DNA from: Chiloscyllium plagiosum
Lineage: Eukaryota
Direction of reading: 5' to 3'
Assembly (NCBI RefSeq): GCF_004010195.1
Contig: NC_057749.1
Span: 12,149,650-12,213,649, forward strand
DNA length: 64,000 bases
The notes below the pieces were generated by a model, which did no database searches, was not told where the DNA came from, and saw nothing but the letters and a program-made list of their open reading frames with translations. A program made the position numbers and the translations under genes. Of the stretch, positions 1,105-56,593 are shown piece after piece (the first letter of the stretch is position 1; each line of letters starts with the position of its first letter).

Positions 1105-2411
1105 GAACAAAGAAGAACAAAGAAATTTTACAGCCCAGGAACAGGCCCTTCAGCCCTCCAAGCCTGAGCCGATCCAAATGTACTGTCTAAACCTGTCGGT
1201 CAATTCCTAAGCATTTGTATTCCTCTGCTCCCCACCTACTCATGCATCTGTGTCTGCCTCTACCACCCCAGCTGGCAATGCTTTCCAAACGCCCACCACA
1301 CTGTGTGAAATACTTGTCGCGTGTATCCCCCTTAAACTTTCCACCTCTCACCATGAAAACATGACCTCTCGCTATTGAATCCTTCACCCTGGGAAAAAGC
1401 TTGTCTCTATCCACCCTGTTTTTACCCTTCATTATTTTGTAAACCTCAATCAGGTCCCCCCTCAATCTCCTTTTTTCTAGTGAAAATAAACCTAACCTAC
1501 TCAACCTCTCTTCATAGCTACCACCTTCCATACCAGGCAACATCCTCGTAAACCTTCTCTGCACCCTCTCCAAAGCGTCCACATCCTTTTGGTAACGTGG
1601 CGACCAGAACTGTACACAGTCTTCTAAATGCGGCCGAACCAATGTCTTGTTAAAATTGTACACGACTTGCCAGCTCTTATACTCAATACCCCATCCAATG
1701 AAGGCAGGCATACTATATGCCTTCTTGACCACTCGATCTACCTGTGCAGCAACCTTCAGGGTACAATGGACCTGCACTCCAGATCTCTCTGCCCATCAAC
1801 TTTTCCCAAGGCTCTTCCAGTCTTTGTATAATTCACTCTAGAATTCGACTTGCCTAAATGCATCACCTCACATTTCTCTGGATTGAAAGCCACCTGCCAC
1901 TTTTTCGCCCAACTCTCCAGTTTATCTATATCCTTCTGTATTCTCTGACAGTCCCTTATGCTTTCTGCTACTCCGCCAATCTTTGTCTCATCTGCAAACT
2001 TGCTGATCATACCAACAGTGCTCTCTTCTAGATCATTTATGTATATTACAAACAACAGTGGCCCCAATACTGACCCCTGTGGAACACCACTGGTCACCTT
2101 TCTCCATTTCGAGAAATTCCTTCAACCATTACTCTATCTCCTGTTGCTCAACCAGATCTTAATCCACCTAGCTAGAGCACCCTGCACACCATGTGGCTTC
2201 ACTTTCTCCATTCGTCTACAAAGGGGAACCTTACCAAACGCCCTACTAATGTCCATGTATATGACATCAACAGCCCATCCTTTATCTAACAACTTGGTCA
2301 CTTTCTCGAAGAACTCCATTAAGTTGGTAAGGCACGATCTCCCCCGCACAAAACCATGTTGCTTATCACTGATAAGCTCATTCTTTTCTAAATATAAATA
2401 GATCCTATCCA
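1105..2411 (-). mobile_element. 5'-truncated CR1 LINE (RT domain to tail), nested in another CR1
   Basis: ORFs with QHGFVRGRSCLTNL, SGVPQGSVLGPLLF, KFADETK, VRPHLEDCVQFWSP; (ttctttg) tail at 1105-1125; frameshifted. Confidence 0.92.
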
Positions 2412-4393
2412 TTCAAAAGTTCATTGGGGAGGCTATTTGCAGGTAAAGGGATAGCTGGAAAATGGGAAACCTTCAAAAATGGGATAATGAGAGCCCAGAG
2501 ACAGTCTGCTTCAGTTAGTGTGAATGGCAAGGCTGGTAGGTGTAGCAACGAGAGAAATTGAGGCTCTGGTCAAGAAAAAGGAAGCAGCATAGGTCAGGCG
2601 TAGACAGTTGAAATTGACGGAATCCCCAGCAGAGTACAAAGGCAGTAGGAGTATACTCAAGAGGGAAATCAGGAGAGCAAGAGGAGGAAATGAGATAGCT
2701 TTGGCAAATAGGGTTAAGGAGAATCCAAAGAGATACTACAAATACATTAATGACAAAAGAGTAACTATGGAGAGAATATGGCTCCTTAAAGATCAACAAG
2801 GCCACCTATGTGTGGAACTGCAAAAAGTGGGTGAGATACTAAACGGGTGTTTTGCATTAGTGTTTACTGTAGAGAAGGTTTTGGAAGTTATAGAACCTGG
2901 AGAAATAAATAATGATATATTGGGAAGTGTCCCCATTTCAGAGGAGGAGATGCTGGACATCTTAAAATGCATAAGAGTGGATAAATCTCAGTGACCTGGT
3001 CAGGTGCACCCTAGAACTTTATGGGAAGCTAGCGAAGTGATTGTTGGCCCCTTTGCTGAAACATTTGTATCATCGATAGCCACAGGTGAGGTGCCAAAAG
3101 TTGGTTAACATGGTGTCATTACTTAAGAAAGATGGTAAGGAAAGGCCAGGGAACTATAGACTGGTGAGCCTGTCGTAAATCGTGGGTAAGGCTGAGGAAC
3201 AGGATGTACTTGTATTTGAATAGGCAAGGACCGATTGGGGTAGTCAACGTGGCTTTGTGCATTGGAAATCATGTCTGACTAACTTGATTGAGTTTTTTTG
3301 AATAAGTGACAAAATAGATTGATAAAGGTAGAGTAATGGACATTGTCAAATGCCTTGCTGAAGTCCATGTAGCCAAAGTTCCGCATGGTAGACTGGTTAG
3401 CAAGGTTAGATCACATGGAATAAAGGGAGAGCTATTTCAATACAAAACTATCTTGAAGATAAGATACAGAGGATGGTGGTGAAGGATTGTTTTTCGGACT
3501 GAGGGCCTGTGACCAGATGTGTGCCACAAGGATTGGTGTTTGGTCCACTGTTTTTTGTCATTTGCTTAAATGATTTGGATGTAAACATAGGCATGGTTAG
3601 TACATTTGCAGATGACACCAAAATTGGTGTAGTCGACAGTGAAAAAGGTTACATCAGAGTACAATGGGATCTTGATCAGATGGGCCACAAAGAGGAGTGG
3701 CAGATGGAGTTAAACTGAGATAAATGAGAGGTGCTGCATTTTGGTAAGGCTAATCAGGATAGCACTTACTGATAAGGTCCTGGGGAATGTTGCTGAACAA
3801 ATAGACCTTGGGGTGCAGGTTCCTAGTTCCTTGAAAGTGGAATCATAAGTAGATAGGATAATGAAGGCAGCGCTTGGAATGCTTTCCTTTATTGGTCAGC
3901 GCATTGAGTATAGGAGTTGAGAGGTCATCTGGTGGCTGTACAGGATGTTGCTTGGGCGACGTTTATAACACTGCATTCAATTTTGAACTCCCTGCTATAG
4001 GAAAGTTGTTTCAAAGCTTGAAAGGGTTCAGAAAGGTTTTACAAGGATGTTGCCAGGTGTTTTAGGAGTGGGTGGGCGGGGTCTGAGCTATAGGGAGAGG
4101 CTGGATAGGTTGGGGTTGTTTTCCCTGGTGTATGGGAGGCTGAGGGCTGACCTTACAGAAGTTTATAAGATCATGAGGGGCATGAATAGGGTGAACAGCC
4201 AAGGTCTTTTCCCCAGGTTAGGGAGTCCAAAACTAAAGGGTACACATTTAAGGTGAGAGGGGAAAGATTTAAAACTGACCTAAGAAGCAACTCTTTCCTG
4301 CAGAGGGTGGTGCATGTATGGAATGAGCTGCCAGAAGTGGTGGTTGAGGCTGGTACAACGACATTTAAAATGCAACTAGATGGGTACATGAAT

Positions 4394-4534
4394 ATGATGT
4401 AGAGATACTGGTGTTAGACCTGAATAGACAAAATCAGAAGTCACATGACACCAGGTTAAAGTCCAACAGGTTTATTTGAAATCACAAGTTTTCAGAGCGT
4501 TGCTCCTTCATCAGGTTAAGTGGAGGGAAGTGAA
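4394..4534 (-). mobile_element. Penelope-like terminal fragment (family A) with degenerate hammerhead motif
   Basis: Similar to the reverse complement of 26640-26771. Minus strand reads CTGATGA A GGAGC AAC GCTCT GAAAACTT. Confidence 0.7.
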
Positions 4535-6472: not shown

Positions 6473-8280
6473 AAGAAAGTGAGGACTGCAGATGCTAGAG
6501 TTCAGAATCAAGGGTGTAGTGCCGGAAAAGCACAGCAGGCCAGCCAGCATCAGAGGAGGAGAATTGACATTTTGGGCATAAGCCCTTCATCAGGAATGAG
6601 GCTTGTGGGTCAGGGCTGAGAGATAAATGGGAGGGGTGTGGGGTTGGGGGAACGTAGCTGGGAAAGTGACAGGTGGGTGAAGGTGATAGATTGGGAGGAG
6701 GGGGATGATGGATGGGTCCAGGGGGGAGTGCAGAATTGGAAGCTTGGGACTGGGATAATGTGAGGGGAGGGGAAATGAGGAAGCTGTTTATCCCATGTGG
6801 TTACAGGGTCCCAAGGCAGAATAGGAGGCATTCCTCCTCCAGGCATCAGGTGCTAACAATTTGGCAGTGGAGGAGGCCCAGGACCTGCATGTCCTTGACG
6901 GAGCGGGAGGGGGAGTTGAAGTCTTCAACCATGGGGTGGTGGGGTTGGTGGGTGCAGGTGTCCCAGGGATTTCTCTGAAACGATCTGCAAGAAGGCGTCC
7001 TGTGTCCCTGATGTAGAGGAAACTACATCGGGTGCAATGGATGCAGCAGGTGACATTGGTAGAGGTAGAGGTAAATTTCCAATAGATATGGAAGGATCTC
7101 TTGGGGCCTTGGACGGAGGTGAAGGGAGTGGTGTGGGCGCAGGTTTTGCACTTTCTGTGGTGGCAGGGAAAGATGCCAGTAGTGGGGTATGGGCTGGTGG
7201 GGGTTGTGGATCTGATGAGTGGGTCGCAGAGGGAATGGTCTTTTCAGAACAATGACAGGGATGGGGAGGGAAATATCTCTCTGTGGTGGGGTCCATTTGG
7301 AGGTGGCGGAAATGGCAGAGGATGATGTGTTGTATACACAGGTTGGTGAGGTGGAATGCGAGGACTAGGGAGGGTTATTTCCTTGGATGCTGCCTGAACT
7401 GCTGTGCTCTTCCAGCACCACTAATCCAGAATCTGGTTTCCAGCATCTGCAGTCATTGTTTTTACCAGGGTTATTTCCTTGTTGCATTGGGAGGGATGGG
7501 GTTCAATGGTGGTGGTGTGTAAAGTTGAGGAGATGCTCTGGAGGGCAATGTCAACCATTTGGGACCTGTGGAAGTCGATGGGTTGTAGTATATGTCTGTG
7601 GTTAGTTGGTCGCCAGAGATGGTGATGGAGAGGTCCAGGAAGGGGAGGAAGGTTTCTGAGATGGTCCAGATGAATTTAAGGTCAGGGTGGAAGGTGTTGG
7701 TAGAGTTGATGAACTGTTCAACCTCCTCGCAGGAGCACAAGACAGCGCCAATACAGTCATCAATGTAATGGAGGAACAGGTGGGGAGTGGTGCCGGTGTA
7801 ACTGTGGAAGATCGACTGCTCCACATATCCAACAAACAGGCAGGCATAGCTGAGTCCCATGGCTACCTCTTTGGTTTGGGGGAAGTGGGAAGATTGGAAG
7901 GAGAAGTTGTTGAGGGTGAGGACCAGTTCAGCCAGGTGGATGAGGGTATCGGTGGAAGGATACTGGTTGGGACAGTGAGAGTAAGAAACGGAGGGCTTGG
8001 AGACCTTCGTCATGGGAGATGGATGTGTACAGGACTGGATGTCCATGGTGAAGATGAGGCATTAGGGGCTAGGGAAATGAAAATTTTGGAGGAGGTGAAG
8101 GATATGGATGGTGTCATGAACCAGCTGGTGTCCCAGCTACTTTCCCCCTAAGATCAATTCCCTCCCATTTATCTCTCAGGCCCGAATCACAAGCGTCATT
8201 CGAAGGGTCTGTTTCCATGCTGTACATCTCTATGACTCTATGAAGGGCTAAGACCCAAAACGTTGAATCTCCTGCTCCTT
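6473..8280 (-). mobile_element. 5'-truncated Penelope-like retroelement (family B) with RT, GIY-YIG remnant and inverted terminal repeat copy
   Basis: LAELVLTLNNFSF...AMG..YACLFVGYVEQ...YIDDCIG (PLE-type RT); CCIHCTRCSFLYI near 6990-7060. 8125-8280 is an inverted copy of 6540-6670. TSD GGATATAAGGACATG at 6458-6472 and 8281-8295. Confidence 0.88.
7386..7466 (+). mobile_element. 81-bp PLE family B 3' terminal fragment inserted in the PLE
   Basis: Reverse complement of the 6475-6555 type terminus; perfect 15-bp TSD AGGGTTATTTCCTTG (7371-7385 / 7467-7481). Confidence 0.85.
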
Positions 8281-8785
8281 GGATATAAGGACATGGCCGA
8301 GGCATTGAATAGGTATTTTGTGTTGTTCTTCACAGTGAAGGAACACTAATAACATGCCAGTAATTGACAAGGAGACGAAAGTAAGTGAGGACCTGGAAAC
8401 AACCATTATCACAAAAGAGATAGCGTTGGACAAGCTAATGGAGGTAAAGAGATAGCAGGAGAGACAGCAAATGCACTTCCTCTAATTTTCCAAAATTCAC
8501 TGACCTCTGAAGCAGTTCCAGTGGATTGGAAAACAGCAAATGTGACACCACTGTTTAAAAAAGGCGATAGACAAAATTTGGGGAACTTTAGACCAGTTGG
8601 CTTAACTTCTGTAGTGGGGAAAATACTTGAGTCTATTATCAACTAAGAACTAGCAAGGCATCCAGAGAGAAATTGTCCCATTGGGCAGATGCAGCATAGG
8701 TTCATTAAAGGCAGGTCATGCTTAACTAATCTGCTGGAATTCTATAAAGATATTATGAGCACGGTTGACAACAAGGATCCAGCAT

Positions 8786-9132: not shown

Positions 9133-10523
9133 AGTAGTTGTGATGTATCTAGATTTCCAAAAGGCATTCAACAAGGTGCCACATAAAAGGCTGCTGCATA
9201 AGATAAAAATGCATAGCTTTAAGGGTAATCAACTAGCATGGATAGAGGATTGATTAACTAACAGGAAGCATAAAGTGGGAATAAATGAGCGCTTTTCTGG
9301 TTGGCGATCAGTGACTAGTGGTGTGCCTCAGGGATCATTATTGGATCCTCAATTATTCACCATTTACATAGATGCTTTGGAGTTTGGGATCACGTGTAGT
9401 GTTTCAAGTTTGCGGATGACACAAACATGAGTGGTAGATCCAAGTGTGCAGAGGACTGTGAAACTTTGCAGAGGGACATAGACACTTCAAGTGAGTGGGC
9501 CAAGGTCTGGCAGATGGGACACAATGCTAATAAATGTGAAGTCATCCATTTTGCTGGGAATAACACTAAAGAGGATTATTATGTGAATGGTAAAAAAAAA
9601 TTGCAGCATGCTGCTGTGCAGAGGGATCTAGGTGTCCCTGTGCATGAATCACAGAGGGTTGGTCTGCAGGTGCAACAGGTAAATGAGGAGGTAAATTGAA
9701 TTTTGTCCTTCATTGCTAAAGGGATTGAGTTTCAAACAGGGAGGTTATGTTGCAGTTGTAGAGAGTGCTGGTGAGACCACACCTGGAATACTGTGTGCAA
9801 TCTCCTTGTATGAGAAAGGATATACTGGTATCAGAGAGGTGCAGAGTAGGTTCAGTAGGTTGATTCCAGAGTCAAGGGGGTTGTCTTATGAGGAGAGACT
9901 GGGATTATATTCACTGGAATTTAGAAGAATGAGTCAGGTTCTTACAGAAACATAAAATTATGTAGGGAGTAGACAAGATAGAGGTAGAGAGGACGTTTCC
10001 ACTGGCAGGCGAAACTAGGACAAGAGGGCAGTGCCTCAAAATCTGGGGAAGCAGATTTAGGACTGAATTAAGAAGGAATTTCTTCACCCAGACGGTTGGG
10101 AATCTGAGTAATTCCATGTCCAGTGAAGTAGTTAAGCCAAGATAAATAATTTTTTGAACAGTAAAAAAACAAAGAGTTATGGTGAGAAGGCAGTTAAGTG
10201 AAGCTAGGCTACGAAAAGATCAGCCAATATCATATTGAATGGCGGAGTGGGCTTGAAGGCCCAGATGGCCTACTCCTAATGTTCTTTTGTTCTAATAATT
10301 AAATTATCAAAATTAGACCCTCAAGGAAAAATAAACATTACATGAAGCTCAATTGAGGTATGACAGGAAGTTGCAAGTAACACATGGAACCAGAACTAGG
10401 AACCATCTGGAAATGCTTTTTGGATCACTCAAGATAGCATTTCTTCACAGTTCTTTAGCGCTGAGGAAACTGCTCTCGAGCAGCAGTTGTCACAGCATAG
10501 ATCTGAATTTCATGACTGAAACA

Positions 10524-10724
10524 TGAGGTGGAGGAATTGGTGTTGGACTGGGGTGGACAAAGTTAAAAATCACACAACACCATGTTATAGTCGAACAGGT
10601 TTATTTGGAAGCACGAGCTTTCAGAGCACTGCTCTTTCAGCTACCTGAAGGAGCAGCTCTCTGAAAGCTAGTGCTTCTAAACAAACCTGCTATATTATAA
10701 CCTGGTGTTGTGTGATTTTTAACT
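10524..10724. mobile_element. Fold-back PLE family A short element
   Basis: Inverted arms 10561-10635 and 10648-10724; TSD ATGACTGAAACA (10512-10523 / 10725-10736). Confidence 0.85.
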
Positions 10725-10789
10725 ATGACTGAAACACAAAGACACAAATGGAATACTTGGCTTTGTATCAGATCAGAATTTAAAAACGA

Positions 10790-12269: not shown

Positions 12270-13045
12270 CCACATCCTTCCTATAAAGCAGTGACCAGAA
12301 CTGCAAACAATACTCCAGGTGCGGCCTTACCAGTGCAGCTGAAGCATGACCTCATGGCTCTGAAACTCAGTCCCTATACCAATAAATGTCAACACACCAT
12401 ATGCCTTCTTAACAACCCTATCAACCTGGGAGGCAACTTTCAGGATGAATAGACTTGTTCATCTACACTGCCTAGAATTTTACCATTAGCCTAGTACTTT
12501 GCATTCCTGTTACTTCTTCCTCACACTTTTCTGCATTAAACTCCATTTGCCACTTCTCCACTCAACTCTACATCTTATCTATGTCTCTTTGTAACCCACA
12601 ATATCCTTTGGCACTATCCACAACTCAGCCTATCATAGTGTCATCTCCAAATTTACTCACCATCCTTCTTTGCCGACCTCCAGATCATTTATAAAAATGA
12701 TAAATAGCAGTGTCCCCAAAATAGATCCTTGCGGCACACCACTGGGAACAGCTCCAGGATGAACATTTCCCGTCAACCACCACCCTCTGTCTTCTTTCAG
12801 CTAGCCAATTTCTGATCCAAACCACGAAAACACCTTCAATCCCGAAACTCCTGATTTTGTGCAATAGCCTACCGTGTGGAACTTCATCAAACACCTTACT
12901 GAAGTCTAGATACACCACTGCGTTACCTTCATCCATCTGTTTTGTCACCTTTTCGAAGAACTCAATAAGGTTTGTGAGGCACAACTGACGCTTCACAAAA
13001 CCAGTGTTGATTATCCGTAATCAAATTATTCCTTTCCAGATGATT
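12270..13045 (-). mobile_element. CR1 RT fragment
   Basis: CLTNLIEFFEKVTK...VYLDFSKVFDEVPHGRLL. Confidence 0.88.
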
Positions 13046-13389: not shown

Positions 13390-13509
13390 GGGAGAAAGTG
13401 AGGACTACAGATGCTGGAGAGTCAGAGTCCTGATGAAGGGCTTATGCCTGAAAGGTCGACTCTCCTGTTCCTTGGATGCAGCCTGATCTGCTGTGCTTTT
13501 CCAGCACCA
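13390..13509. mobile_element. PLE family B short element with internal inversion
   Basis: Terminus GAGAAAGTGAGGACT.CAGATGCTGGAG joined to an inverted segment; TSD CTCTTTTCCYATTCT (13375-13389 / 13510-13524, one mismatch). Confidence 0.82.
13424..13463 (+). ncRNA. Minimal type I hammerhead ribozyme motif (one substitution in the helix III palindrome)
   Basis: AGAGTC-CTGATGA-A-GGGC TTAT GCCT-GAAA-GGTC-GACTCT; 6-bp helix I, predicted cut after GUC at 13457. Confidence 0.6.
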
Positions 13510-13544
13510 CTCTTTTCCCATTCTCCCAAAGCAGCTATCCAAAT

Positions 13545-14271: not shown

Positions 14272-17200
14272 AGAGCTTCGGTCTTCACTTGAACCAGAGG
14301 GGTATTAATATTCTGGGTGGGAAATTTGCTGGTGCTATTCGGTTCGGTTTAAACTAGTTCAGCAGGGGAATGGGAACCTGAGGTATAGCTCCAGTGCACA
14401 GGAGGATGAGAATAGGGAGGGCATGGACAGGACTTCACGGTCACAGGAATGTGCTGGCAGACAGCAAGCTCGTTTGAAGTGTGTCTACTTCAATGCCAGA
14501 AGTATCCGAAATAAGGTAGGTGAGCTTGCAGCATAGAGAGATACCCAAGACTTCAATATTGTGGCCAGTTCGGAGACATGGATAGCACAGGGTCAGGAAA
14601 GGATGTTGCAGGTTCCAGGGTTTAGATCTTTCATTAAGGACAGGCAAGGCGGTAAAAGAGGGGGTGGTGTGGTCTTGTTAGTCAAGGATAGTATAATGGT
14701 GGCTGAAAGAGCTTTTGATGAGAACCCATTGACTGAGGTAGTATCGGCTGAGGTTAGAAACAGGAAAGGAGAAGTCACAATGCTGGGAGGTTTTTATAGG
14801 CCTCCGCAGAGTTCCAGGGAGGTGAAGGGGAGGATTGGCAAAATGATTCTGGGTAGGAGTGAAAGGAACAGGGTGGCCATAATGGGGGACTTTAACTTCC
14901 CCAACATCGACTGGAAATGCTATACCTCTAGTATGTTGGATGGATCAGTTTTTGTTCAATATGTGCAGGAGGGTTTTCTGACACAGAATATATAAGGGTC
15001 GACAAGAGGGGAGACAACACTGGACCTGGTGCTTGGTAATGTACCAGGCCAGGCGTTTGATTTAGTTGGAGGTGAGCACTTTGAAGAGAGTGATCATTAT
15101 TCAGTTATGTTTAGTTTAGCAATGGAAAGGGATAGGTACATGCCACAAGGCAAGAGCAATTATAATGCGATTAGGCAAAATTTATGATGTATAGAACGGG
15201 GTAGCAAAATGCAGGAAATGGGGACAATCGAAATGTGGAGCTGGTTTAAGGAACAGATATTGCATGTCCTTGATAGGAATGTCCCTGTCAGGCAGAAAGT
15301 GATAAGGTAAAGGAACTGTGGTTTACGACACAAATTGCATCTCTTGTTAAGCGGAAGGAGGCTTACATGACGATGAGACAAGATGGTTCAGATGAGGTGA
15401 TGGAGAGTTACAGATTAGCCAGGAAGGATTTAAAGGGAGAGTTAAGAGGAGCCTTAGAGAGAACACAAACAGTCTTTAGCAGGTAGAATAAAGGAGAACC
15501 CGAAAGCTTTCTATAGGTATATGAGGGGGAAAAAAGGACTACTAGGGTAGGAATAGGGCCAGTCAAAGACAGAAGTGGGGATTTGTATGGGAGATCAGAG
15601 AGGTGCTAAACAAATATTTCTCATCGGTTTTCACTGAGGAAAAGGATAATATTATAGAGGAGAAGAATGAGATACGAGATATGAGACTAGAAAGGATCGA
15701 GGTTAGTAAGGAAGAGGTGTTATCAATTCTAGAAGGAGTGAAAGTAGACAAGTCCCTTGGGCCTGAAGGGATTTATCAGAGGATCCTCTGGGAAACTAGG
15801 GAGGAGATGGCAGAGTATTTGACTTTGATATTTGAGTCGTCATTGTCTACAGATTTAGTATAGAGGACTGGAGGATTGCAAATGTTGTGCGCTTGAAGGG
15901 CAGTGAAGATGACCCAGGTAATTATAGACCAGTGAGCCTTACGTCTGTTGTAAGAAAAGTTTTGGAAAGGATTATAAGAGATATGATTTATAATCATCTA
16001 GCAAGCAATTTGATTTCAGATAGTCAACATGGTTTCATCAAGGGCAGATCATGTCTCACAAACCTCACAGATGAATTTTGAGAAGGTGACCAAGCATGTG
16101 GATGAGGGTACGGCAGTTGACGTGGTATACATAGACTTCAGTAAAGCCTTTGATAAGGTTCCACATGGTAGGTTGATGGAGAAAATTTGGAGGTAAGGGA
16201 TTGAGGGTGATTTAGCAGTATGGATTAGAAACTGGCTTTTTGAAAGAAGGCAGCGAGCGGTGGTTAATGGAAAATATTCAGCCTGGAGTCTGGTTACGAG
16301 TGGTATGCCACAAGGATCTGTTTTGGGACGATTTCTGTTTGTCATTTTTATAAATGACTTAGATGCAGACAAAGGTGGATGGATTAGTAAGTTTGCAGAT
16401 GACACTAAAGTGGGTGGAGTGGTGGACACTGTGGAAAAATGTTGCAGGTTGCAGGGGGGCTTGGATAAACCGCAGAATTGGGTTGAGAGGTGGCAAATGG
16501 AGTTCAATGCAGCTAAATGTGAGGTGATTCACTTTGGGAAGAATAACACGAAGGCAGACTACTGGGTCAATGGAAAGATTCTTGGTAGTATAAATGTGCA
16601 GAGGGATCTTCGAGTCCATGTACATAGATCCCTGAAAGTTGCCACCCAGGTTGATTGTGCTGTTAAAGAGGCGTACAGTGTATTTGGTTTTATTGGGAGA
16701 GGGATTGAATTCCAGAGCCGTAATGTCATGCTGCAACTATACAAAATGCTGGTGCGGCCTCACTTGGAATATTGTGTGCAGTTCTGGTCGCCCCATTACA
16801 GGAAGGATGTGGAAGCATCAGAAAAAGTGCAGAGGAGATTTACCAGGATGTTGCCTGCTCTGGAGGGAAGGTCTTATGAGGAAAGGTTGAGAGACTTGGA
16901 TCTGTTCTCATTGGAAAGAAGAAGGCTAAGAGGGAATTTGATAGAGACATACAAGATGATCAGAAGATTAGATAGGGTACACACAAAGTCTTTTTCCAAG
17001 GATGACAATGTCAGCTTGTTCAAGGAAGCTTAAATACAAATTGAGGGGTGATACATTTAAGACAGATGTCAGAGGCAGGTTCTTTACTCAGAGGGTGGTA
17101 AGGGCGTGGAATGCCCAGTCTGCCAATGTAGTTAACTCAGCCACGTTAGGGAGATTAAAACAATCCTTGGATAAGCACATGGATGATGATGGGATAGTGT

Positions 17201-20249: not shown

Positions 20250-23200
20250 AAGTAATTAAAAGAAGAGGTAAATTATGAAAGAAAACTCATGCAAGATATA
20301 AGAATGGACAGCAAAAGCTTCTTTAAATATATAAAAAGGAAGAGAAAGTGAATTGGTCCATTGAAGGATGAGACTACCCCATTATTAATGGGGTACACAG
20401 TGGGATTAGAGAAACAGTGGAGACACAATCAATATTTTGCCTCAGTTTTCACACTGGAGGACACTCGTACTACACCAATAGTAATAGGTCATTCAGAGGC
20501 TATAGAAAGGGAAGAATTTGGAATAATCTTCACTGGGAGAAAAAGTACTGAGCGAACTATCGAGACTGAAAGCAGACCGTTCCCAGGATCCAATAACCTA
20601 TATCGTAGAATCTTGAAGGAAGTGGTAGCAGGGGAAAATGAATCCATGGCTATTATAATCCAAAATTCACTGGAGGCAGGAAAGGTTCCAGTGATTTAAA
20701 AAAATGCTAATAATATGTCCTTACTCAAAAAGGGAGGGAGGCAGAGAGGAGGGAACTATAGACCAGCAAGTTTATCATCTAACCTTGGGAAATTGTTAGA
20801 ATCCATTATAAAGCAAATAATAGCAGGACATTTGCAAAGACAAAATACAATCAGAGTCACATTCTTTCATGAAAGGTAAATCATGTTTGACTAATTTGCT
20901 AGAGGTCTTTGAAGATATGACTGGAGGGTGGCTAACATGGTGTCACTATTTGAGAAAGGTGGTAAGGAAAAGCCAAGGAACTATGGACTGGTGAGCCTGA
21001 CATCAGTGGTGGGCAAGCTGTTGGAGGGAATCCTGAAGGACAGGATTGACATGCATTTGGAAAGGCAAGGATTGATTAGGAATAGTCAATATGGCTTTGT
21101 GCATGGGAATTCATGTCTCACTAAGTTGACTGAGTTTTTTGAAGAAGTAACCAAGAGGATTGATGAGGATAGAGCTGTGGACATGATTGAAATGGACTTC
21201 AGTAAGGTATTCAACAAGGTTCCTCAGGGTAGACTGGTTAGCAAGGTTAGATCACATGCAACACAGGGAGAACTAGCCATCTGGATACAGAACTGGCTCA
21301 AAGGTAGAGGTCAGATGGTGGTGGTGGAGGGTTGCTTTTCACACTGGAGGCCTGTGTCCAGTGGTGTGCCACAAGGATCGATGCTGGGTCCACTGCTTTT
21401 TGTCGTTTACATAAATGATTCGGATGTGAACATAGGAGGTATACTTAGTAAGTCTGCAGGTGACACCAAAATTGGAGGTGTAGTGGACAGCGAAGAAGGT
21501 TACCTCAGAGCAGAAAGGGATCTTGATCTGATAGGGCCAATGGGCTGAGCAGTGGCAGATGGAGTTTAATTTAGATAAATGTGAGGTTCTGCATTTTGAG
21601 AAAGCAAATCAGGACAGAATTTATACACTTAATGGTAAGGTCCTGGGGAGTGTTGCTGAACCAAGAGACCTTGGAGTATAGATTCATTGTTCCTTGAAAG
21701 TGGAGTCACTGGTCGATAGGGTAGTGAAGGCAGCCTTTGGTATGCTTTCCTTTACTGATCAGTGCATTGAGCATAGGATTTGGGAGGTCATATTGCAGCT
21801 GTACAGAACAACGGGTTAGGTCACACTGCACCTGCTCTGGGCAGTGGCCCACACTGCGCCTCCGTGTTAGTCTGCCAGCCAGCTGAGGGACTGGGGAAGG
21901 GGAACATACTTTGCAAAATTTCTTCCCATCATGTTCTTCCTCTTTGGGAAGTGATTTAATTGAAACCTACAAATTACTTAAAAGGATAGACATGACAGCT
22001 ATAGGAAAGAAGTTTCCTATTTGGTGAATCTAGTATAAAGTGGGTACGTGATTTAGGACCAAGAAAAATTTGTTCACTCAGAGGAAGCTCAGGTTATTTG
22101 AAGTAGATAGGTTTCTGATTACCAATGATGTCAAGTTCATATATAAACTTACTTAAGTTGCCCAGTCACTTCGGTCTGTCCTCAAGACCCACTGAGGGAA
22201 CCAACACATTGACAGCATTTTTCCACAATGTTAACAAGTTACAAATTGGACACAGTAAAAGATTGGCTGCTTTGAGTTTAGGTCCTTTGGATATCAATAT
22301 CTCTGCACATGTTCAGAATTTTCCATTCTATTTTGTAAGTACACATGTAAACCACTATACTGCAGATTATGCAATATTTTTACATTGCTTCAAAATACAT
22401 GAATAGGAGAGGTTTAGAGGAATTGAGCCAAATGCAGACAAATAGATCTTGTTTAGTCTGGAAAACCTGCTCGGCAAGGACTGAGGGTTCTGTTTCCATA
22501 CTCTATGACTTTAATTAGCAAGGCTCGGACACATGGGATCCAAGGAGCTAGCCATTTGGATACAAAACTGGCTTAAAGATGGCAGAGGATGGTTGTGAAG
22601 GGTTCTTTATTGGATTGAAGGCCTCAGTGTGCCACGTGGATCAGTGGTGGGTCCACTACTTTTTATCGTTTATATATATTATTTGGATGGGAATATAGCA
22701 GGAATAGTTAGTAAATTTGAAATTATTTGCCAAAATTGATGGTGCAAGTGGACAGTGAATGTGGTCAGCTCAAAGTACATTGGACCTTCATCAGATGAGT
22801 TGATGCACCAAGGACTGGCCAATGGAGTTTAATTTAGATAAATGAGTGCTGCAGTTGGGTAAGGCAAATCAGGGCAGGTCTTATACACTTCGGTAGGGCC
22901 CTGCTCAGGTGTATTTCCAAGCAAAGAGACCTTGGGGATGCAGGTTCACAGTTCCTTGAAGATGGACGCACAAGTCAACAGGGTAGCGAAGGTGGCATTT
23001 GGTATGTTAGCCTTTGTTGGTCAGCGCATTGATTATAGGAGTTGGGATTTCAGGTTGAGGCTTTACAGGACCTTTTAAATACTGTATTTAATTCTGGTCT
23101 CCATGTTATAGGAAAGATGTTGTTAAACTTGAAAAGATTTACAAGGATGTTGCCAGGGTTAGAGGGTTTAAATTATAGGGAGAGATTGAATAGGCTGGGG

Positions 23201-25458: not shown

Positions 25459-25579
25459 GGGAGAAAGTGAGGACTGCAGATGCTCCAGATCCTGAAGAAG
25501 GGCTTATGGCCGAAACGTCAATTCTCCTGTTCCCTGGATGCTGCCTGACCTGCTGCGCTTTTCCAGCAACACATTTTCA
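25459..25579. mobile_element. PLE family B short element with internal inversion, inserted in a minus-strand SINE (about 25390-25770)
   Basis: Perfect 16-bp TSD ACACAAAGTATGAATG (25443-25458 / 25580-25595); hammerhead core CTGAAGA..GAAACGTC at 25492-25519. Confidence 0.88.
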
Positions 25580-26373: not shown

Positions 26374-26771
26374 TAAAAATCAATCTAAACATCAGGTCAT
26401 AGACAGAGAACACAGGGGGCTAACACCTTCAACATATTGTCTAGCTATCAGCATTGTTAACAGCTAACCTAAGAATGCAACTTTTAAAAAAAGATTTTGT
26501 GATTTACACATGAAAGAAGTGAAACTATCACTGTATTCTAACAGATGAAAGGCTTAACAGACAATCAATTTTTCAATGCATAATTTCAGTTACATCACAC
26601 TGCAAATTTTTGCTATAAATTCTGTGTTACAATTGAGCCCTCCACTATCACCTGATGAAGGAGCGTCGCTCCGAAAGCTAGTGTGCTTCCAATTAAACCT
26701 GTTGGACTATAACCTGGTGTTGTGTGATTTTTAACTTTGTACACCCCAGTCCAACACCGGCATCTCCAAAT
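26374..26771 (+). mobile_element. PLE family A 3' terminal 400 bp
   Basis: 13-bp TSD CAAAACAAAAGGA (26361-26373 / 26772-26784); terminus nearly the same as the 34497-34675 arms; carries a hammerhead motif. No coding remnant, so the PLE assignment is by analogy. Confidence 0.75.
26649..26683 (+). ncRNA. Minimal hammerhead ribozyme motif, intact core
   Basis: CAC-CTGATGA-A-GGAGC GTC GCTCC-GAA-AGCT-A/GTG: helix I CAC:GTG, 5-bp helix II, palindromic AGCU, predicted cut after 26680. Confidence 0.72.
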
Positions 26772-28871
26772 CAAAACAAAAGGAGGCCACTTGGTCAATC
26801 AAGTACGGTCTGGCTCGATGCAGAATAATGCAGTTTCTCCTATTCCTCCCATAGCCATTCAAATGGTCCCCAATTTTCTTTTGGAATCATTTGATTATTC
26901 CCACTTCCAAGAAAAATTTCTTTACCCAGCGTGTGATGAGAATATAGTGAAAGGGAACACATTTTTATTTTCCTTTACAACTGTAAGCTGAAATGATTGT
27001 TGGACTACGATATAGCTACACCTTTTTAGCTTTTTGAAGCACTGAGATTCTAACTGAGAAAATGGTTTAAGGAGTTTCTGAGAAAAGGAAGAACTGCCTG
27101 ACAATAGCCTTTTATTGGTTGAGTTGCAGTCTGTTGCAAATCTCTAATTGTAAAGAAACCAGACACCTCCAGAGTTGGCAAACTGAAAATATCTCTCTCA
27201 CTCTCCCTTTTTCCTGATGAGAGAGATAAAGTTTTGAAGACAGAATTCTAATAGGGCTTTTATTTAAACCACTGAAATGAAAAATGACCATTGCTTTACA
27301 GACAACAGCTTTTCATTATTGCTGAAGTCAAAATGAAGTATGTCAGCTAATTTAACCCACCTTTGTATGCAGCTGCTCGATCTTCAGAATTTTGCACCAT
27401 CTTTTTTCCACCAATAATATGTAAAGCCAACAGTCTTTATAGGGGTACAGTTTAAGTAGCAGAGTATTAGATTAGTAGTCCTTTCTTTTCCCTCTGCTAT
27501 TTGTTCAAGTTAGGTGTGCTATAATTTTTTTCATTATGAATGGGAAAACCTGGAGTGAATTGCTTTTGTCCTGTCAATCAGGCAAGCTGTCATCTTGGTG
27601 GTCCAACTGGAATTTTATACATCTTGTGAAGGCTTGTTCAACAGTGGGGTATAATTCTCAGTGCATTCTTCCCAATTCAATCACGACAGTGAAACTTGCA
27701 ATCATGAGAATTGGTGCATTTAAGGGGAAGCTCCACAAGGGAACTAAGTTGCTCACATGTAAACGAGGAAGAATAAAGAAGCCTCAAGTGGAGAATAAAT
27801 ACTGGCACAGCTTAACTGTAATAAATGCCCTGCTTTTGTGCTGCAAGTCCAATTCAATTCAATTTAAGAACTCAAACAATAAGATGCAACACAATCCACA
27901 AAGGAAAATTTAAAAAGGAATGAAGCTTGACGTAACGCACAAAGTAAGTGCTTGAGAAAGTTAGCTCATTATTACTGGGGAAAACAGCATGTAATTTAAA
28001 ATTACTAGCAATTTAACATCAATATGCTGATAACTTAATACATTGCAGGAGTGAGCACCCAGCAGCAAAGGAAAATTTCAAATTCAAACCCTACTCCATG
28101 TAAATTGGTTGAACCTATCAAGGCACTGAGGACTAAGCCCATGGAATTCTCTTCCTCAGAAAAGAGTGACAGCTGCGTGATTGAATCTTTTAAAGGCTGA
28201 GGCAGATTAATTTTTGAGAAGAGAGCCAAAGATTATGGGGGAAAAACTGAAAAGTGGAGATGAGATGTCATTCACATGATCTTATTGAATGATGGAGCAT
28301 GATAAGGGCTGAATAGCCGATTCCCACTGAATGGCCTATGTTTTAATGACATGAAAACTGGCCTTCGTAATACTGAGTTATGAGTGGTGGGTTTGATGGA
28401 TCCTGAACATGCTCAGGAATTCATCTTTCGTAGCTTTAAGTGACTCTGACAGACAGGTCCAAATATGTAGGGATGTTAGAAAGCAAAGAGCAGGACCAGG
28501 CTTTAATTTACACACAAACAATATTCAATACCTGCATTTAATTTCCTGTCTTTTCCCATGGGGTGTGGGCATAAATAGTTAAGACCAGCATTTGTTACCC
28601 ACTCCTTTTTTTCCAATAGTTTTTACTATACTCTGTATTTGTAAACTTTAGAATTTCTTAACCTGACCACATATTGTAGGAGTGTGACGTTTTGGTTGGT
28701 TATTGGACAGATTTGCTGCTTTTATGCTGCCATATTCAACTTTTACAACACAGAATATCACCATTCATGCTAATTGTTCACATTCGCAGGAGTGGGAGCT
28801 GCCTTAGAGTCATAGAGATGAACAATATTGAAAAGGATCCTTTGGTCCAACTGGTTCATTACCAATCAGAT

Positions 28872-34496: not shown

Positions 34497-34675
34497 TCAT
34501 GATTTGGAGATGCCTGTGTTGGACTGGGGTGTACAAAGTTAAAAATCACACAACACCAGGTTATAGTCCAACAGGTTTAATTGGAAGCACACTAGCTTGG
34601 AGCGTCGCTCTGAAAGCTAGTGTGCTTCCAATTAAACCTGTTGGACTATAACCTGGTGTTGTGTGATTTTTAACA
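34497..34675. mobile_element. Fold-back PLE family A element with a perfect 61-bp inverted repeat
   Basis: Arms 34538-34598 and 34614-34674 are exact reverse complements; TSD AGGTTAAACAG (34486-34496 / 34676-34686). Confidence 0.9.
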
Positions 34676-39479: not shown

Positions 39480-39586
39480 GGAGGAGAAAGGGAGGGCTGC
39501 AGATGCTGGAGATCAGAGCTGAAAATGTGTTGCTGGAAAAGCACAGCAGGTCGGGCAGCATCCAAGGAACAGGAGAATCGACGTTT
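39480..39586 (-). mobile_element. PLE family B terminus truncated inside the hammerhead
   Basis: Minus strand starts at GAAACGTCGATTCTCC; TSD TTCACCTA (39472-39479 / 39585-39592). Confidence 0.82.
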
Positions 39587-40429
39587 CACCTATTCCTGAC
39601 CAGACATGTGCAGCTACTCCAGTTAAGGAGATGTGATGATATATCCACTGCACATGATCAAAGAGATAACTGCTCCATGCAGATCCCAATTTGGCAGGTT
39701 TTTGTCAAGTGTTGAAGGTTTATACTTTACCTGGTTCTCCAATGTTCAGCGGTCTTGTCAAAATGAAATTTGGTTTTATGCTGTTTCATCTTGATTTTGC
39801 CCCTCACACCAGTTAGTATTTCTGGCTTCAGTAGCTCTTTGGTATTGGAAGAGTAGTTTCTACGCAGTGTGTAACTGGTCTTTGTCCTGGATTATTTTCC
39901 ATTCTGTCAGTATGCATGCTTTCCAACTTGAGAATTTCTTTGCATAAATATGTGGGATTTGCTTGATATCTTAATGATTCTTTTACCATTTTCACTGCTG
40001 CTTCAGCCCTTATTTGACCTGGATCATGTGGAAATGATGGGCGGTGCAGTTAATGAAATGACACAATTCCTCACTCATGAACAGTGGCTCATGCACATTC
40101 ACGACAATGTTGGATTGCTGTAATGGTCAGCATTCACTTTTAGAAATTTAACAATTTCACCTGTAGTCATTGAGAAGGCTGGTCCACTTCAACAGTGGTC
40201 TGAATAGTATTCTACAGTGATAAGATAAATCTGTTCCTCTCAATGTTCCTCAGCTTCATCCATGGCCTTTCTGGGGTTTGTGTATCGACCACATTTCTCA
40301 GTTTGTTTAGCTGGTGCACATTAGAACAGTGCAACTGGCATAGATCTGGCTCATTCCCAGAATCTGCGCAGTTGCAGTCACCCGAACCATCTTCCACTTC
40401 ATCTGAAGCTCTAAGGTAAACCAAATCCG

Positions 40430-41434: not shown

Positions 41435-41613
41435 AACCCAAAAGAACTGCGGATGCAGGAAATCATAAACAAAAAACAGAAATGCTGGAAAAGCACAGGA
41501 GGTCTGGCAGTATCTGTGGAGAAATCAGAGTTGACATTTTCGATCCAATTATTCTTCCTCAGAGTGGACTATATGAACTCAGTTTTCTCTCCACAGATCC
41601 TGCTAGACCTCAG
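41435..41613. mobile_element. Degenerate fold-back PLE terminus (family B-related)
   Basis: GGTCTGGCAGTATCTGTGGAGA versus TCTCCACAGATCCTGCTAGACC; decayed minus-strand CTGAGGA..GAAA. Confidence 0.65.
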
Positions 41614-42626
41614 AGTCAGAGATTTTCATCATGGTAACAGACCCTTCAGTCCAACTCGTCTATGCCAACCAGATATCCTAAATTAATCTAATGCCATTTG
41701 CCAGCACTTGGACCATATCCCGCTAAGCCCCTCCTATTCATATACCCATGCCTTTTAAAATGTTGTAGTTGTACCTGCCTCTACCACTTCCTCACTCCAT
41801 ACACACACCACCCTCTGCGTGAAAACGTTGATCTTCAAATCCCTTTTAAATCTTTCACCTCTGACCTTAAACCTATATCCTCTAGTTTTGTCTCTCCTAT
41901 CCTGGTCAAAATACTTTGGCTATTCACCCTCTCCACACCCCTCATCATTTTATAAACCCTTAAGGTCACCCTTCTGCCTACATTTTAGGGAAAATAGCCC
42001 CATGCCTATTCAACCTCTGCCTATAGCTTAACTTCTTCCACCCAGCAACATCCTTGTAAAACTTTTCTGCACCCTTTCAAGTTTCACAGCATCTTTCCTA
42101 TAGCAGGGAGACCAGAACTGAATGCAGTATTCCAACAGTGGCCTCACCAACATCTTGTATAGCCGCAACATGACATCCCAACTTCTGTAATCAGTACACT
42201 CACCAATTAAGGCAAGCATAGTATATGCCTGCTATACTACCTTGTCTATCTGCAACTCCCATTATTAAAGAAATACAAACCTGCACCCCACAATCTCTTT
42301 GTTCAGCAACATCCCCAGAACCCTACCATTACATGTAAAGTCTGGTCTTGATCGGTCTTACCAAATTGCAACACCTCACATTTTTCTAAATTAAATTCCA
42401 CCTGCCATCCCTCGGCCCATCTGATCAATGTCCCATTGTATTCTGAGAAAATCTTCTTCATTGTCCGTTACACCACCAATCTGTGTCATCTGCAAACTTA
42501 CCAACCATTCTTCCTATATGAGCATCCAAATCATTTATATAAATGATAAAAAGCAGTGGACACAGCACCGATCCTCGGGGCACATCACTGGTCACAAGCC
42601 TGCAGTCTGATAAACAATGCTCCACT

Positions 42627-43605
42627 CTTTTAAATAAAGGGTGTAAACAGACAAATCCAACATCCCCCGCTACTGCTCCCATTAGACACTTCGGGGACAG
42701 GGACAGCACCGGGTGAAACTCAGCAAAGCCCACACTGCTCCTTCAAAACAGAAAATAAAGCTGCCTTGAATCTTTTAAAGAAAAATAAAGATCCTATTAC
42801 TCTGGGGAAAAACAAACAATTAACCAGCAAAAAATGGCTCTCCCCTGACTCTGATCCCACCAACCTCTTTTGGGCAGGGACCACAGAGGACCAATATAAA
42901 AAGAGACTAAAGGAAAATCAAAGAAAACAAATAAAAAACAAATAACTAAATAAATCAATGCCAGTAAATCAATGCCCTCTGCTCCATCCCCATCAAACAC
43001 TCCTGGGATAGAGACAACAAAGGTTTAACATCCAGAGGATGTTTTCATACTCATTCCAACTAAAAATAAAATTCTCTTCGTCCCAATCCCCATCAAGTAC
43101 ATCTGGACAGGGATAATACAAGAGGTCCAAAATTGGAACAAAGGGCAAATAAAACAGCCCTCTTCCCAAGGCACCAAATCAGAAAACAAATGCAAACTTA
43201 AAAGGCAAAATAGAAACTTATACTACAGAAACAATTAACTAAATCAGAATATCATTATCCCGATTGATAATGCACTTCAGCCCTCACTACGCCCAGCCTC
43301 TTGAAAGGCCTCAAATGTGCCACTGAGCACGGCATGCTTCCCCTCCAAGGACACCTGAGCGCAGATGTAACCACTAAAGAGGGGCAGACAGGCAGGAACA
43401 ACAAGCTCCTCTTCAAGCTGTTACATGGACCTATTAATGGTTATCTTGGCCAGGCCTAGAAGCAAAGCCACAAGAAGGCTCATAGACTTGTCTACCGTAC
43501 CCTGCTTCAGGTGCCCATAGATCAGGAGTGTGGGGCTGAAGTGCAACCAGAATTTTAACAGCAGCCCCTTCAAAAAACTTAAATGGGTCTGCAGATGAAT
43601 GCATT
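42627..43605 (-). mobile_element. Second Tx1/L1-clade family: ORF2 C-terminus and long 3' UTR
   Basis: LLVALLLGLAKITINRS...LPLFSGYICAQVSLE..HAVLSGTFEAF; T-rich 3' UTR ending TTTATTTAAAAA. Confidence 0.65.
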
Positions 43606-44022: not shown

Positions 44023-44232
44023 ATAAAATGAGGACTGCAGATGCTGGAGATCAGAGCTGAAAATATGTTGCTGGAAAAGCGCAGCAGAAATATGTTGCTG
44101 GAAAAGCGCAGCAGGTCAGGCAGCATCCAAGGAGCAGAAGAATCAACGTTTTGGTTCATGCCCGAAACGTCGATTCTCCTGCTCCTTGGATGCTGCCTGA
44201 CCTGCTGCGCTTTTCCAGCAACATATTTTCAG
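44023..44232. mobile_element. Fold-back PLE family B element with a 27-bp internal tandem duplication
   Basis: TSD ATCTCAGCAAGT (44011-44022 / 44233-44244); arms pivot at 44151-44165; AAATATGTTGCTGGAAAAGCGCAGCAG occurs twice. Confidence 0.88.
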
Positions 44233-45524
44233 ATCTCAGCAAGTGGCCCAGCAATCACTTCCCGAACTTCCCTCAAAGTTCTAGGTTCACCTGATCAAGG
44301 ATTTATCCACCTTTTTGCATTCTAAGGTGTCCAGCATCACCACCTCTAAAATATGGACATGTTCCAATATATCACTCCTTACTTCTCCAAGTTCTCCAGC
44401 TTCCACAGCCTTCGTCACAGTAAACAGATCTGTGAAATACTCGTTTAATATCTCATCCATCTCCAACCTCTCGATAGAGACAGCCTTGTTCACTTTTAAG
44501 GCGCCTTATTCTCTCCCTAGTTACTCTTATGCCCTTAATGCATTTGTCGATGTTCTTTGGATTCTTGCTAATCCTATTTGCCAAAGCTATTTCACATCCC
44601 TTTCTTGCCCTCTTGATTTTCCCCTTAAGTATACTCTTACTGCCCTTATACTCTTCTAGGGATTCACTTAATCTGAGCTATCTATACCTAATATTTGCCT
44701 CCTCCTTTTTCTTGACCACAACCTCTAGTCATCCAGCATTCTCTACACCTACCACCCTTGTCCTTCACTGTAAGAGAAACAGTATGTTCCTGAACTCTCC
44801 TGAAAGGCCTCCCATTTACCAACTAGCCATTCACCTGTAAATAGCCTTTCCCAATCAACTTTTGAAAGTTCTTGACTTCGCTTGACTTCAGGTATTGTTA
44901 AATTGTAAATTTTTCTTGTTCAGCTTCAGGCTTACCTGAAAAGGTCTGTCAAGCAGTTCACCGTATTTTGATCGCGGTCAGCGATGGATTCTTTGATTGT
45001 ATCTCCACATCCATAAATAAGCTGATAATCCACTATAGTTTCCAATCCAGGAAGATCAAAAATGATTTGATACTGTCTGTGGTGATATTCTTCCAGAGCA
45101 GTGGAAATACCAAATGGCATGCAAAATCATCTGTATTTACCAAAGCGGGTCAAGGACATGGTTAGAAAATTGCTGCTTTCATCCGGCCTGATTTACCAGC
45201 AACGATCCTTCACATCTAAAAAAAGTGTTGAAAATTTTTGATGTTGCAAATTGTGACAACTTCTTTTTCAATTATTTGCATGGAATACTGAGATCCCTTC
45301 AGGGCCTTATTTAGATACTTGGGTCGATGCATGCACTTAGCTTTCCAGGTGGTTTCATTGCTACCATGCAGGTAACTTGCTCTGTAGGAATTATCATTTC
45401 CTTAACTATGCCCTTCTTTTCCAGCTCTTCCATCTAATCTTTGTGGCTGGCCATGAGTGCAGTAGAAGTTTCCTCAATAGACCAAAACTAGTCTTGCATT
45501 CAAGTAGATATTCTCCAGGAAAAT

Positions 45525-56362: not shown

Positions 56363-56593
56363 TTGTTGTGGTTCTGTTCGCCGAGCTGGGAATTTGTGTT
56401 GCAGACGTTTCGTCCCCTGTCTGGGTGACATCCTCAGTGCTTGGGAGCCTCCTGTGAAGCGTCCTCCAGCATTTATAGTGATTTGTATGTGCCACCTAGA
56501 CAGGGGACGAAAAGTCTGCAACACAAATTCCCAGCGCGGCGAACAGAACCACAACCACGAGCACCCGAGCTACAAATCTTCTCCCAAACTTTG
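56363..56593. mobile_element. Fold-back PLE family C element
   Basis: Arms at about 56366-56428 and 56491-56554; 13-bp TSD ACCAAATCTGCTA (56350-56362 / 56594-56606); homologous to 11570-11680. Confidence 0.88.
56401..56440 (-). ncRNA. Minimal hammerhead ribozyme motif, intact core
   Basis: Minus strand GCA-CTGAGGA-T-GTC A CC CAGACA GG G GAC-GAA-ACGT-C/TGC; helix I GCA:TGC, predicted cut between 56404 and 56403. Confidence 0.72.

Follow-up and report, generated by a model that had tools for sequence, protein, structure and literature searches.

The closest described systems to the motifs presented here are the minimal type I hammerhead ribozymes of Penelope-like elements (PLEs). So far as the portions of the literature available to us indicate, canonical hammerheads occur in all PLEs except those of the Naiad and Chlamys clades (Craig et al. 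2021, PMC8557442), and the minimal forms exhibit low activity in vitro (Cervera and De la Pena 2014, PMC4209133). Typical PLE insertions show strong 5' truncation, an inverted and 5'-truncated copy adjoining the 5' end, a tail of 30-40 bp that is often found at one end only, and a hammerhead near the 3' end (PMC8557442); the tail has been attributed to reverse transcription starting at two sites (Frangieh et al. 2024, PMC11167929). According to the accessible portions of the latter report, the enzyme of an anole PLE cleaves and extends both target strands, hammerhead cleavage is assisted by protein and is dispensable for insertion in vitro, and RNA-seq reads neither begin nor end at the cut site. 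Among cartilaginous fishes, the available parts of the sources report PLEs in elephant shark (PMC4350176) and whale shark (PMC8455134), and non-LTR retrozymes together with PLEs in one species (Li, Clavereau and Pollet 2026 preprint).

Here we describe three repeat families, termed A, B and C, within a stretch of 64,000 nt from Chiloscyllium plagiosum (assembly GCF_004010195.1, NC_057749.1, positions 12,149,650-12,213,649, forward strand), hereafter called the window. We judge it probable, at about 0.82, that these families represent PLE-kind minimal type I hammerheads carried in non-coding modules at the 3' ends of PLEs from at least three lineages, or of short non-autonomous elements derived from these, in a shark/ray genome. 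As in the minimal hammerheads described by Cervera and De la Pena, the motifs in the window combine CUGANGA and GAA boxes, a base left unpaired between positions 9 and 10.1, pairing of G10.1 with C11.1, a four-nucleotide palindrome instead of a real helix III, and a short helix I (PMC4209133). The sequence-only reading had assigned the motifs to this very class, and the assignment is borne out feature by feature within the available parts of that paper. The same source portrays genomes with numerous consensus families whose copies are mostly single and dispersed, with some close pairs on opposite strands, which is also the pattern in the window. However, helix II spans 4-6 bp in the window versus 7-8 bp in the Schistosoma families, and the examples in the accessible portion of the paper come from fishes, coelacanth, Xenopus, reptiles and invertebrates, a list in which the shark/ray lineage of the window does not appear.

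The wider architecture can be compared in the same manner, again within the accessible parts of the sources. Canonical PLEs of the Neptune and Penelope-Poseidon kinds (PMC8557442, PMC11167929) share with the window a reverse transcriptase with a C-terminal GIY-YIG endonuclease and a CX4CxxC linker, as well as 5' truncation, an inverted abutting copy, a one-sided optional tail of 30-40 bp and a hammerhead near the 3' end, but the partial tandem (pseudo-LTR) arrangement of canonical PLEs is absent from the window. Non-LTR retrozymes (PMC7229834; Li, Clavereau and Pollet 2026 preprint) are likewise short non-coding repeats with type I hammerheads and kinship to PLE termini. However, retrozymes form tandem arrays and circular RNAs have been reported for them, whereas the repeats in the window are non-tandem and are known here from DNA alone.

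Both strands of the window were scanned with a strict minimal type I descriptor, which demanded helices I and II of at least 3 bp each, the CUGANGA and GAA boxes, no more than one extra base separating CUGANGA from helix II, an A-NN-U palindrome and H at position 17. Exactly two intact sites were returned, one in family A and one in family C (A1 and C1 in Table 1). The same descriptor applied to 300 dinucleotide-preserving shuffles gave a mean of 0.01 matches, with at least one match in two shuffles and at least two in one. Because shuffling destroys repeats, descriptors with scrambled cores were also run on the real window; among 540 arrangements of the core boxes, 530 gave no match and nine a single match, and two matches were reached by the true core alone. 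When up to two defects were allowed, six loci were found (10645+, 13430+, 25492+, 26652+, 4486- and 56404-), against an average of 1.15 in 40 shuffles, none of which exceeded 4. Each of the six falls in family A, B or C and depends on the additional base that follows A9. The hammerhead motifs in the window are real and exceed chance expectation.

Homology extends this collection to 11 copies in which both core boxes are recognisable (four of family A, five of B and two of C), plus six copies that retain only the 3' half; two of these 17 are strictly intact. The earlier reading had counted about ten recognisable copies and had placed hammerhead cores at six sites in three dissimilar families. 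The count agrees well with ours, and each of the six sites holds the motif or a decayed copy of it. Rfam covariance models gave no match in the window at gathering score, and no hammerhead was present among the nine matches at E<=10, as would be expected if the models require the helix III stem-loop that these motifs do not have. Certain sub-threshold matches (MIR860, mir-3202, mir-2756, mir-9457 and others) were considered as microRNA genes and rejected; these microRNA-like and other matches are produced by the long near-perfect hairpins of head-to-head copies of families A and B (34546-34665, 44103-44211 and 10603-10682).

Table 1. Hammerhead-bearing repeats and associated PLE features in the window (positions count from the first nucleotide of the window; a dot denotes a pair with arms on both strands)
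Feature	Positions	Strand	Description
A1, intact minimal type I hammerhead	26649-26683	+	Helix I CAC/GUG (3 bp), CUGAUGA, extra A; helix II GGAGC/GCUCC, loop GUC, GAA, AGCU, A17; predicted cut after 26680
Family A unit common to A1 and A2	26638-26773	+	Sharp 3' end at 26773
A2 repeat	4395-4527	-	Hammerhead 4483-4517; both core boxes present
Family A head-to-head pair	10539-10727	.	Arms 10558-10640 and 10645-10727, 86% complementary
Family A head-to-head pair	34500-34674	.	Arms 34538-34598 and 34614-34674, 100% complementary
B1	13390-13510	+	Hammerhead 13427-13460; helix I 6 bp; C11.1>U, ACGU>AGGU
B2	25459-25572	+	Hammerhead 25489-25522; both core boxes and ACGU kept; one helix II mismatch, G1.1>A
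B3	6562-6597	-	G12>A, ACGU>AUGU, G1.1>A (CpG-type transitions); helix II GGGC/GCCC intact
B4, inverted 5'-truncated copy	8145-8290	+	Adjoins the PLE 5' end at 8121
B5, strongly decayed	41483-41539	-	
B6	39483-39588	-	5'-truncated just upstream of GAAACGUC; 3' half intact, tail present
Family B head-to-head pair	44025-44236	.	Arms 44088-44154 and 44162-44228, 96% complementary
Family B head-to-head pair (fifth pair of the window)	6553-6650 and 8145-8277		PLE 3' region and the copy at the PLE 5' end
Family B 3'-end fragment	7380-7454	+	75 nt; inside the PLE reading frame in opposite orientation; protein alignment breaks down there
PLE, 5'-truncated	6474-8121	-	Stops and frameshifts present; GIY-YIG followed by 3' untranslated region, family B hammerhead and tail
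PLE, partial reverse transcriptase	8121-7240	-	
PLE, CX4CxxC linker and GIY-YIG endonuclease	7282-6786	-	
C1, intact minimal hammerhead	56401-56440	-	Helix I GCA/UGC (3 bp), CUGAGGA, extra U; helix II GUC(A)CC-CAGACA-GG(G)GAC (A-G mismatch at one position), GAA, ACGU, C17; cut predicted after 56404
C2	11603-11642	-	CUGAUGA, extra U, 6-bp helix II; helix III damaged (CAGU)
C3, inverted copy truncated within helix II	56490-56555	+	ACGU>AAGU
GIY-YIG core remnant, 20 aa	11862-11921	-	About 220 nt upstream of C2

The three families exhibit a common anatomy despite their unrelated sequences. The core (C3 U4 G5 A6 N7 G8 A9 / G12 A13 A14 A15.1 / U16.1 H17) is complete in A1 and C1, and in B2 apart from its helices, and other copies carry one to three substitutions at differing positions. 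A single unpaired base lies between positions 9 and 10.1 in all three families (A in families A and B, U in family C). The adjoining 10.1-11.1 pair is G-C in four of seven copies (A1, B2, B3 and C1) and is weakened to G.U in the other three (A2, B1 and C2) through C11.1>U changes at CpG. The tetranucleotide palindrome that replaces helix III is intact in A1 (AGCU) and in B2 and C1 (ACGU), and has decayed in A2, B1, B3 and C2. All helix positions other than 10.1-11.1 differ between families, and pairing is nevertheless kept.

The preservation of pairing had been described earlier as resembling covariation, a term we do not retain, since the families cannot be aligned outside the core and the pattern is therefore one of structural conservation between non-homologous sequences rather than of covariation within an alignment. 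A MAFFT alignment of the seven hammerheads was dropped when the 3' halves were found to be misaligned, and the pairs were consequently tabulated by eye without a formal pair count. A second point in need of adjustment is the proposed position at the termini of the repeats. The motifs do lie in the 3' region, approximately 56-125 nt from the repeat 3' end, and not at the very terminus. Minimum-energy folds of A1, B1, B2 and C1, computed as monomers and homodimers, did not return the hammerhead fold, by a method that is uninformative for motifs this small; the same limit applies to the A1 homodimer fold, in which helix II is paired between molecules.

Family B provides the most direct connection to a PLE. 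A tblastn search of the whole window with eight PLE proteins revealed one decayed reading frame, at 6786-8121 (-), and nothing elsewhere. For the frame at 7474-8061 (-) within it, 62 of 408 candidates proved to be relatives at E<=1e-3, the best of them belonging to carpet sharks and rays (Chiloscyllium, Rhincodon, Stegostoma, Hypanus and Mobula). Four of these relatives were examined with Pfam, and RVT_1 was recognised in all four and, at the C terminus, a GIY-YIG domain in three (one below the cut-off). With an E value of 8e-12, the frame at 6791-7243 (-) matches P0044 over residues 771-862, which comprise the zinc-finger linker and GIY-YIG core. A C-x4-C-xx-C linker is described for the Neptune and Nematis clades in the available parts of Craig et al. 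(2021, PMC8557442), and any clade assignment of the window PLE relies on a linker motif read by eye. The B3 hammerhead starts approximately 170 nt downstream of the inferred end of the PLE reading frame, and family B is therefore the 3' module of a PLE.

Linkage to PLE reverse transcriptase or GIY-YIG remnants had been proposed for families B and C alike. The adjoining frame of B3 upholds the first of these, and the second depends on a weak but consistent match, in that the 20-aa remnant near C2 is aligned by 19 of the 62 PLE proteins with a best E value of 4e-4 on a 1.3-kb segment. No PLE coding remnant adjoins A1, A2 or C1. With no PLE frame nearby, the PLE origin of family A and of C1 rests on the type of motif and on the insertion signatures described below.

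Other reverse transcriptase fragments are scattered through the window. Among 135 stop-to-stop frames with a length of 80 aa or more, Pfam recognised RVT_1 in eight, an AP-type endonuclease in one and GIY-YIG in none; even at E<=10 it missed the PLE reverse transcriptase and endonuclease frames, both of which were recognised by homology search and BLAST. Decayed LINE fragments with RVT_1 are located at 1190-2412 (-), 9400-9952 (+), 12688-13020 (-), 14537-17030 (+), 20913-21545 (+) and 42461-42742 (-), and one of them also carries the AP-type endonuclease. They are unrelated to the hammerhead families, and by eye the RVT_1 fragments outside the PLE carry what we take to be CR1/L2-type LINE motifs. 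These fragments (15836-17030 in the case of the fourth) were rejected as PLEs, with none of eight PLE proteins aligning to them.

Family B has a GGGC-UUAU-GCCC helix II, an ACGU palindrome and C17, and none of its copies in the window is intact. Its core includes three CpGs (C11.1-G12, ACGU and C17-G1.1), and most of the decay consists of transitions at these sites, as expected in a methylated vertebrate genome, such that the decay says little about selection. B4 contains approximately 55 nt of 3' untranslated region and a decayed hammerhead. Both B1 and B2 carry, just 5' of the hammerhead (13390-13426 and 25459-25491, respectively), the family B tail of about 30 nt as its reverse complement; in B2 it directly abuts the CUGA box and in B1 7 nt intervene, and this inverted tail can lengthen helix I to 6-7 bp. 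The two copies are arranged almost identically, suggesting that a short non-autonomous master with inverted repeats at its termini was amplified. In family C, the A-G mismatch in helix II of C1 is replaced by A-U in C2, where two of the pairs are G-U, and C3 forms with 56365-56430 a 66-nt inverted repeat that is 94% complementary.

The manner in which the copies are inserted is also characteristic of PLEs. An optional tail of 30-37 nt is present in families A and B, and head-to-head truncated pairs are found in all three families, for a total of five in the window (two of A, two of B and one of C). In the family B pair near 44.1 kb, the join is in the helix II loop and the tail of approximately 30 nt is carried by the minus-strand arm only. 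Family A has an alternative short 3' end at 26736/26737 in contigs of three public runs placed on 26400-27000, which makes the final 37 nt an optional tail. In both family A pairs the short arm ends at this short 3' end; in the pair at 34500-34674 the full 3' end is present on the long arm, and the short arm terminates at the position equivalent to 26735. The join of that pair falls inside the helix II palindrome and its 5' core box is missing, and the pair at 10539-10727 is joined at the 5' edge of the CUGA box, with a 2-nt deletion in the 5' box decaying both of its hammerheads. A2 is damaged differently, by C11.1>U, by AACU (no palindrome) in place of helix III and by a helix I of 2 bp. Solo copies and head-to-head pairs are the only arrangements present in the window; no same-strand tandem pair of one family was found, and hence no tandem pair able to supply a second hammerhead in cis.

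Across the five pairs, the join lies within the helix II palindrome in two (family A at 34.6 kb and family B at 44.1 kb) and elsewhere in three. The two helix II joins would fit an arrangement in which two cDNAs that were primed on the opposing target strands anneal there, or in which one cDNA snaps back. Observations of this type lend themselves to an alternative in which the PLE 3' region retains the motif as an RNA module with a structural role or one in protein binding, perhaps so that the reverse transcriptase can recognise it or the two cDNA strands can be joined, with self-cleavage having no role in the life cycle. Available portions of the literature add to its appeal, in that catalytic mutants of the anole element were without effect on insertion in vitro and RNA-seq ends were not seen at the cut site (PMC11167929), and in that PLE clades devoid of the motif proliferate well (Craig et al., PMC8557442). 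Against it, three otherwise unrelated families have in common the nucleotides of the catalytic core in addition to helices, and published PLE hammerheads do cleave, as dimers or with the help of protein (PMC4209133, PMC11167929, in their accessible parts). We consider this alternative distinctly unlikely, and favour the reading as PLE-kind minimal hammerheads.

A broader speculation, which we regard as improbable though deserving of mention, is that the helix II hairpin is mechanically active in PLE integration and, separately, that family A and the short form of family B are hyper-abundant, shark-specific non-autonomous elements. The family A unit of approximately 135 nt and the short, inverted-tail form of family B may have kept only the hammerhead and the module where reverse transcription starts.

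The public contigs provide further information regarding family A as a DNA repeat; the RNA origin of the three runs is a guess, and they have no bearing on expression or RNA ends. The 3' portion of the family (about 80 nt) is very abundant in these contigs. The AT-rich stretch upstream of A1 (26400-26637, +) is also repeated in them, at about one tenth of the depth of the 3' part, and in some contigs it is joined to the hammerhead and reaches at least 250 nt upstream of it. This stretch contains no reading frame and has no other copy in the window, and 26400-26650 may represent a longer form of the family A element. The consensus of the contigs upstream of 26683 keeps both core boxes. A step in depth near the A1 cut site was rejected as an RNA 5' end, because a 2-nt indel at 26683 between the window copy and the family breaks alignments there. 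No reads were placed from the one raw RNA run used.

Two additional observations were made with public data. Within the 29-nt hammerhead at 26652-26680 (+), the only variants at 10% or more are the first two bases of loop II (26665 and 26666), in contigs of three public runs from two organisms and three studies; with counts this small and contigs this filtered, the pattern does not suffice to call selection. In addition, at least one third of the sampled words of 26400-27000 are present in runs labelled with four different organisms, and the family A repeat is thus probably shared nearly unchanged among several related species.

The abundance of family A raises the question of whether it and the short, inverted-tail form of family B are truncated PLE ends at all, or independent non-autonomous elements that borrow the PLE machinery, either as monomeric 'non-LTR retrozymes' or as SINE-like parasites. 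Neither A1 nor A2 has a reading frame within 2 kb, the inverted tail shared by B1 and B2 suggests amplification from a short master, and the available part of the 2026 preprint proposes that vertebrate retrozymes are derivatives of PLEs and reports them in one cartilaginous fish. On the other hand, tandem arrays are absent from the window, and the contigs that run at least 250 nt upstream of the family A hammerhead are at odds with a short independent unit. We find this proposal very unlikely as a replacement for PLE-derived 3' modules, which it would refine rather than contradict. Chance look-alikes amplified by repeat copying, for which one might cite the shortness of the descriptor and the fact that each family amounts to one independent event, are exceedingly improbable when 0.01 expected matches per window are set against two unrelated families that are strictly intact and a third that is nearly so, all three with an extra nucleotide and a G10.1-C11.1 pair that a match does not require.

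If the preferred reading of PLE-kind minimal hammerheads is correct, published work on PLEs indicates how the motifs would operate. Helix I and helix II would form inside one transcript molecule, and the AGCU or ACGU palindrome would pair with that of a second copy, located either in tandem on the same RNA or on another RNA. The resulting dimer would be an active hammerhead that is predicted to cut after H17, corresponding to 26680 (+) and 56404 (-). Cleavage would probably be slow and aided by the element's own protein. By analogy with these elements, a catalytic role in vivo is presumed for families A, B and C, and most of the copies in the window are probably dead fossils.

Our search of the literature found no description of families A, B or C, which may be named in the supplements of the 2026 preprint. 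Regardless, the arrangement is already well described in other animals and is textbook for PLEs. The findings leave the knowledge of ribozymes and of PLEs unchanged and are useful for the annotation of repeats in shark genomes. A single 64-kb window displays the full insertion signature of PLEs, in that 5' ends are truncated, copies lie head to head, the tail is optional and the ribozyme core has decayed through its CpGs, and cartilaginous fishes join the animals whose PLE termini visibly carry minimal hammerheads of the dimer type.
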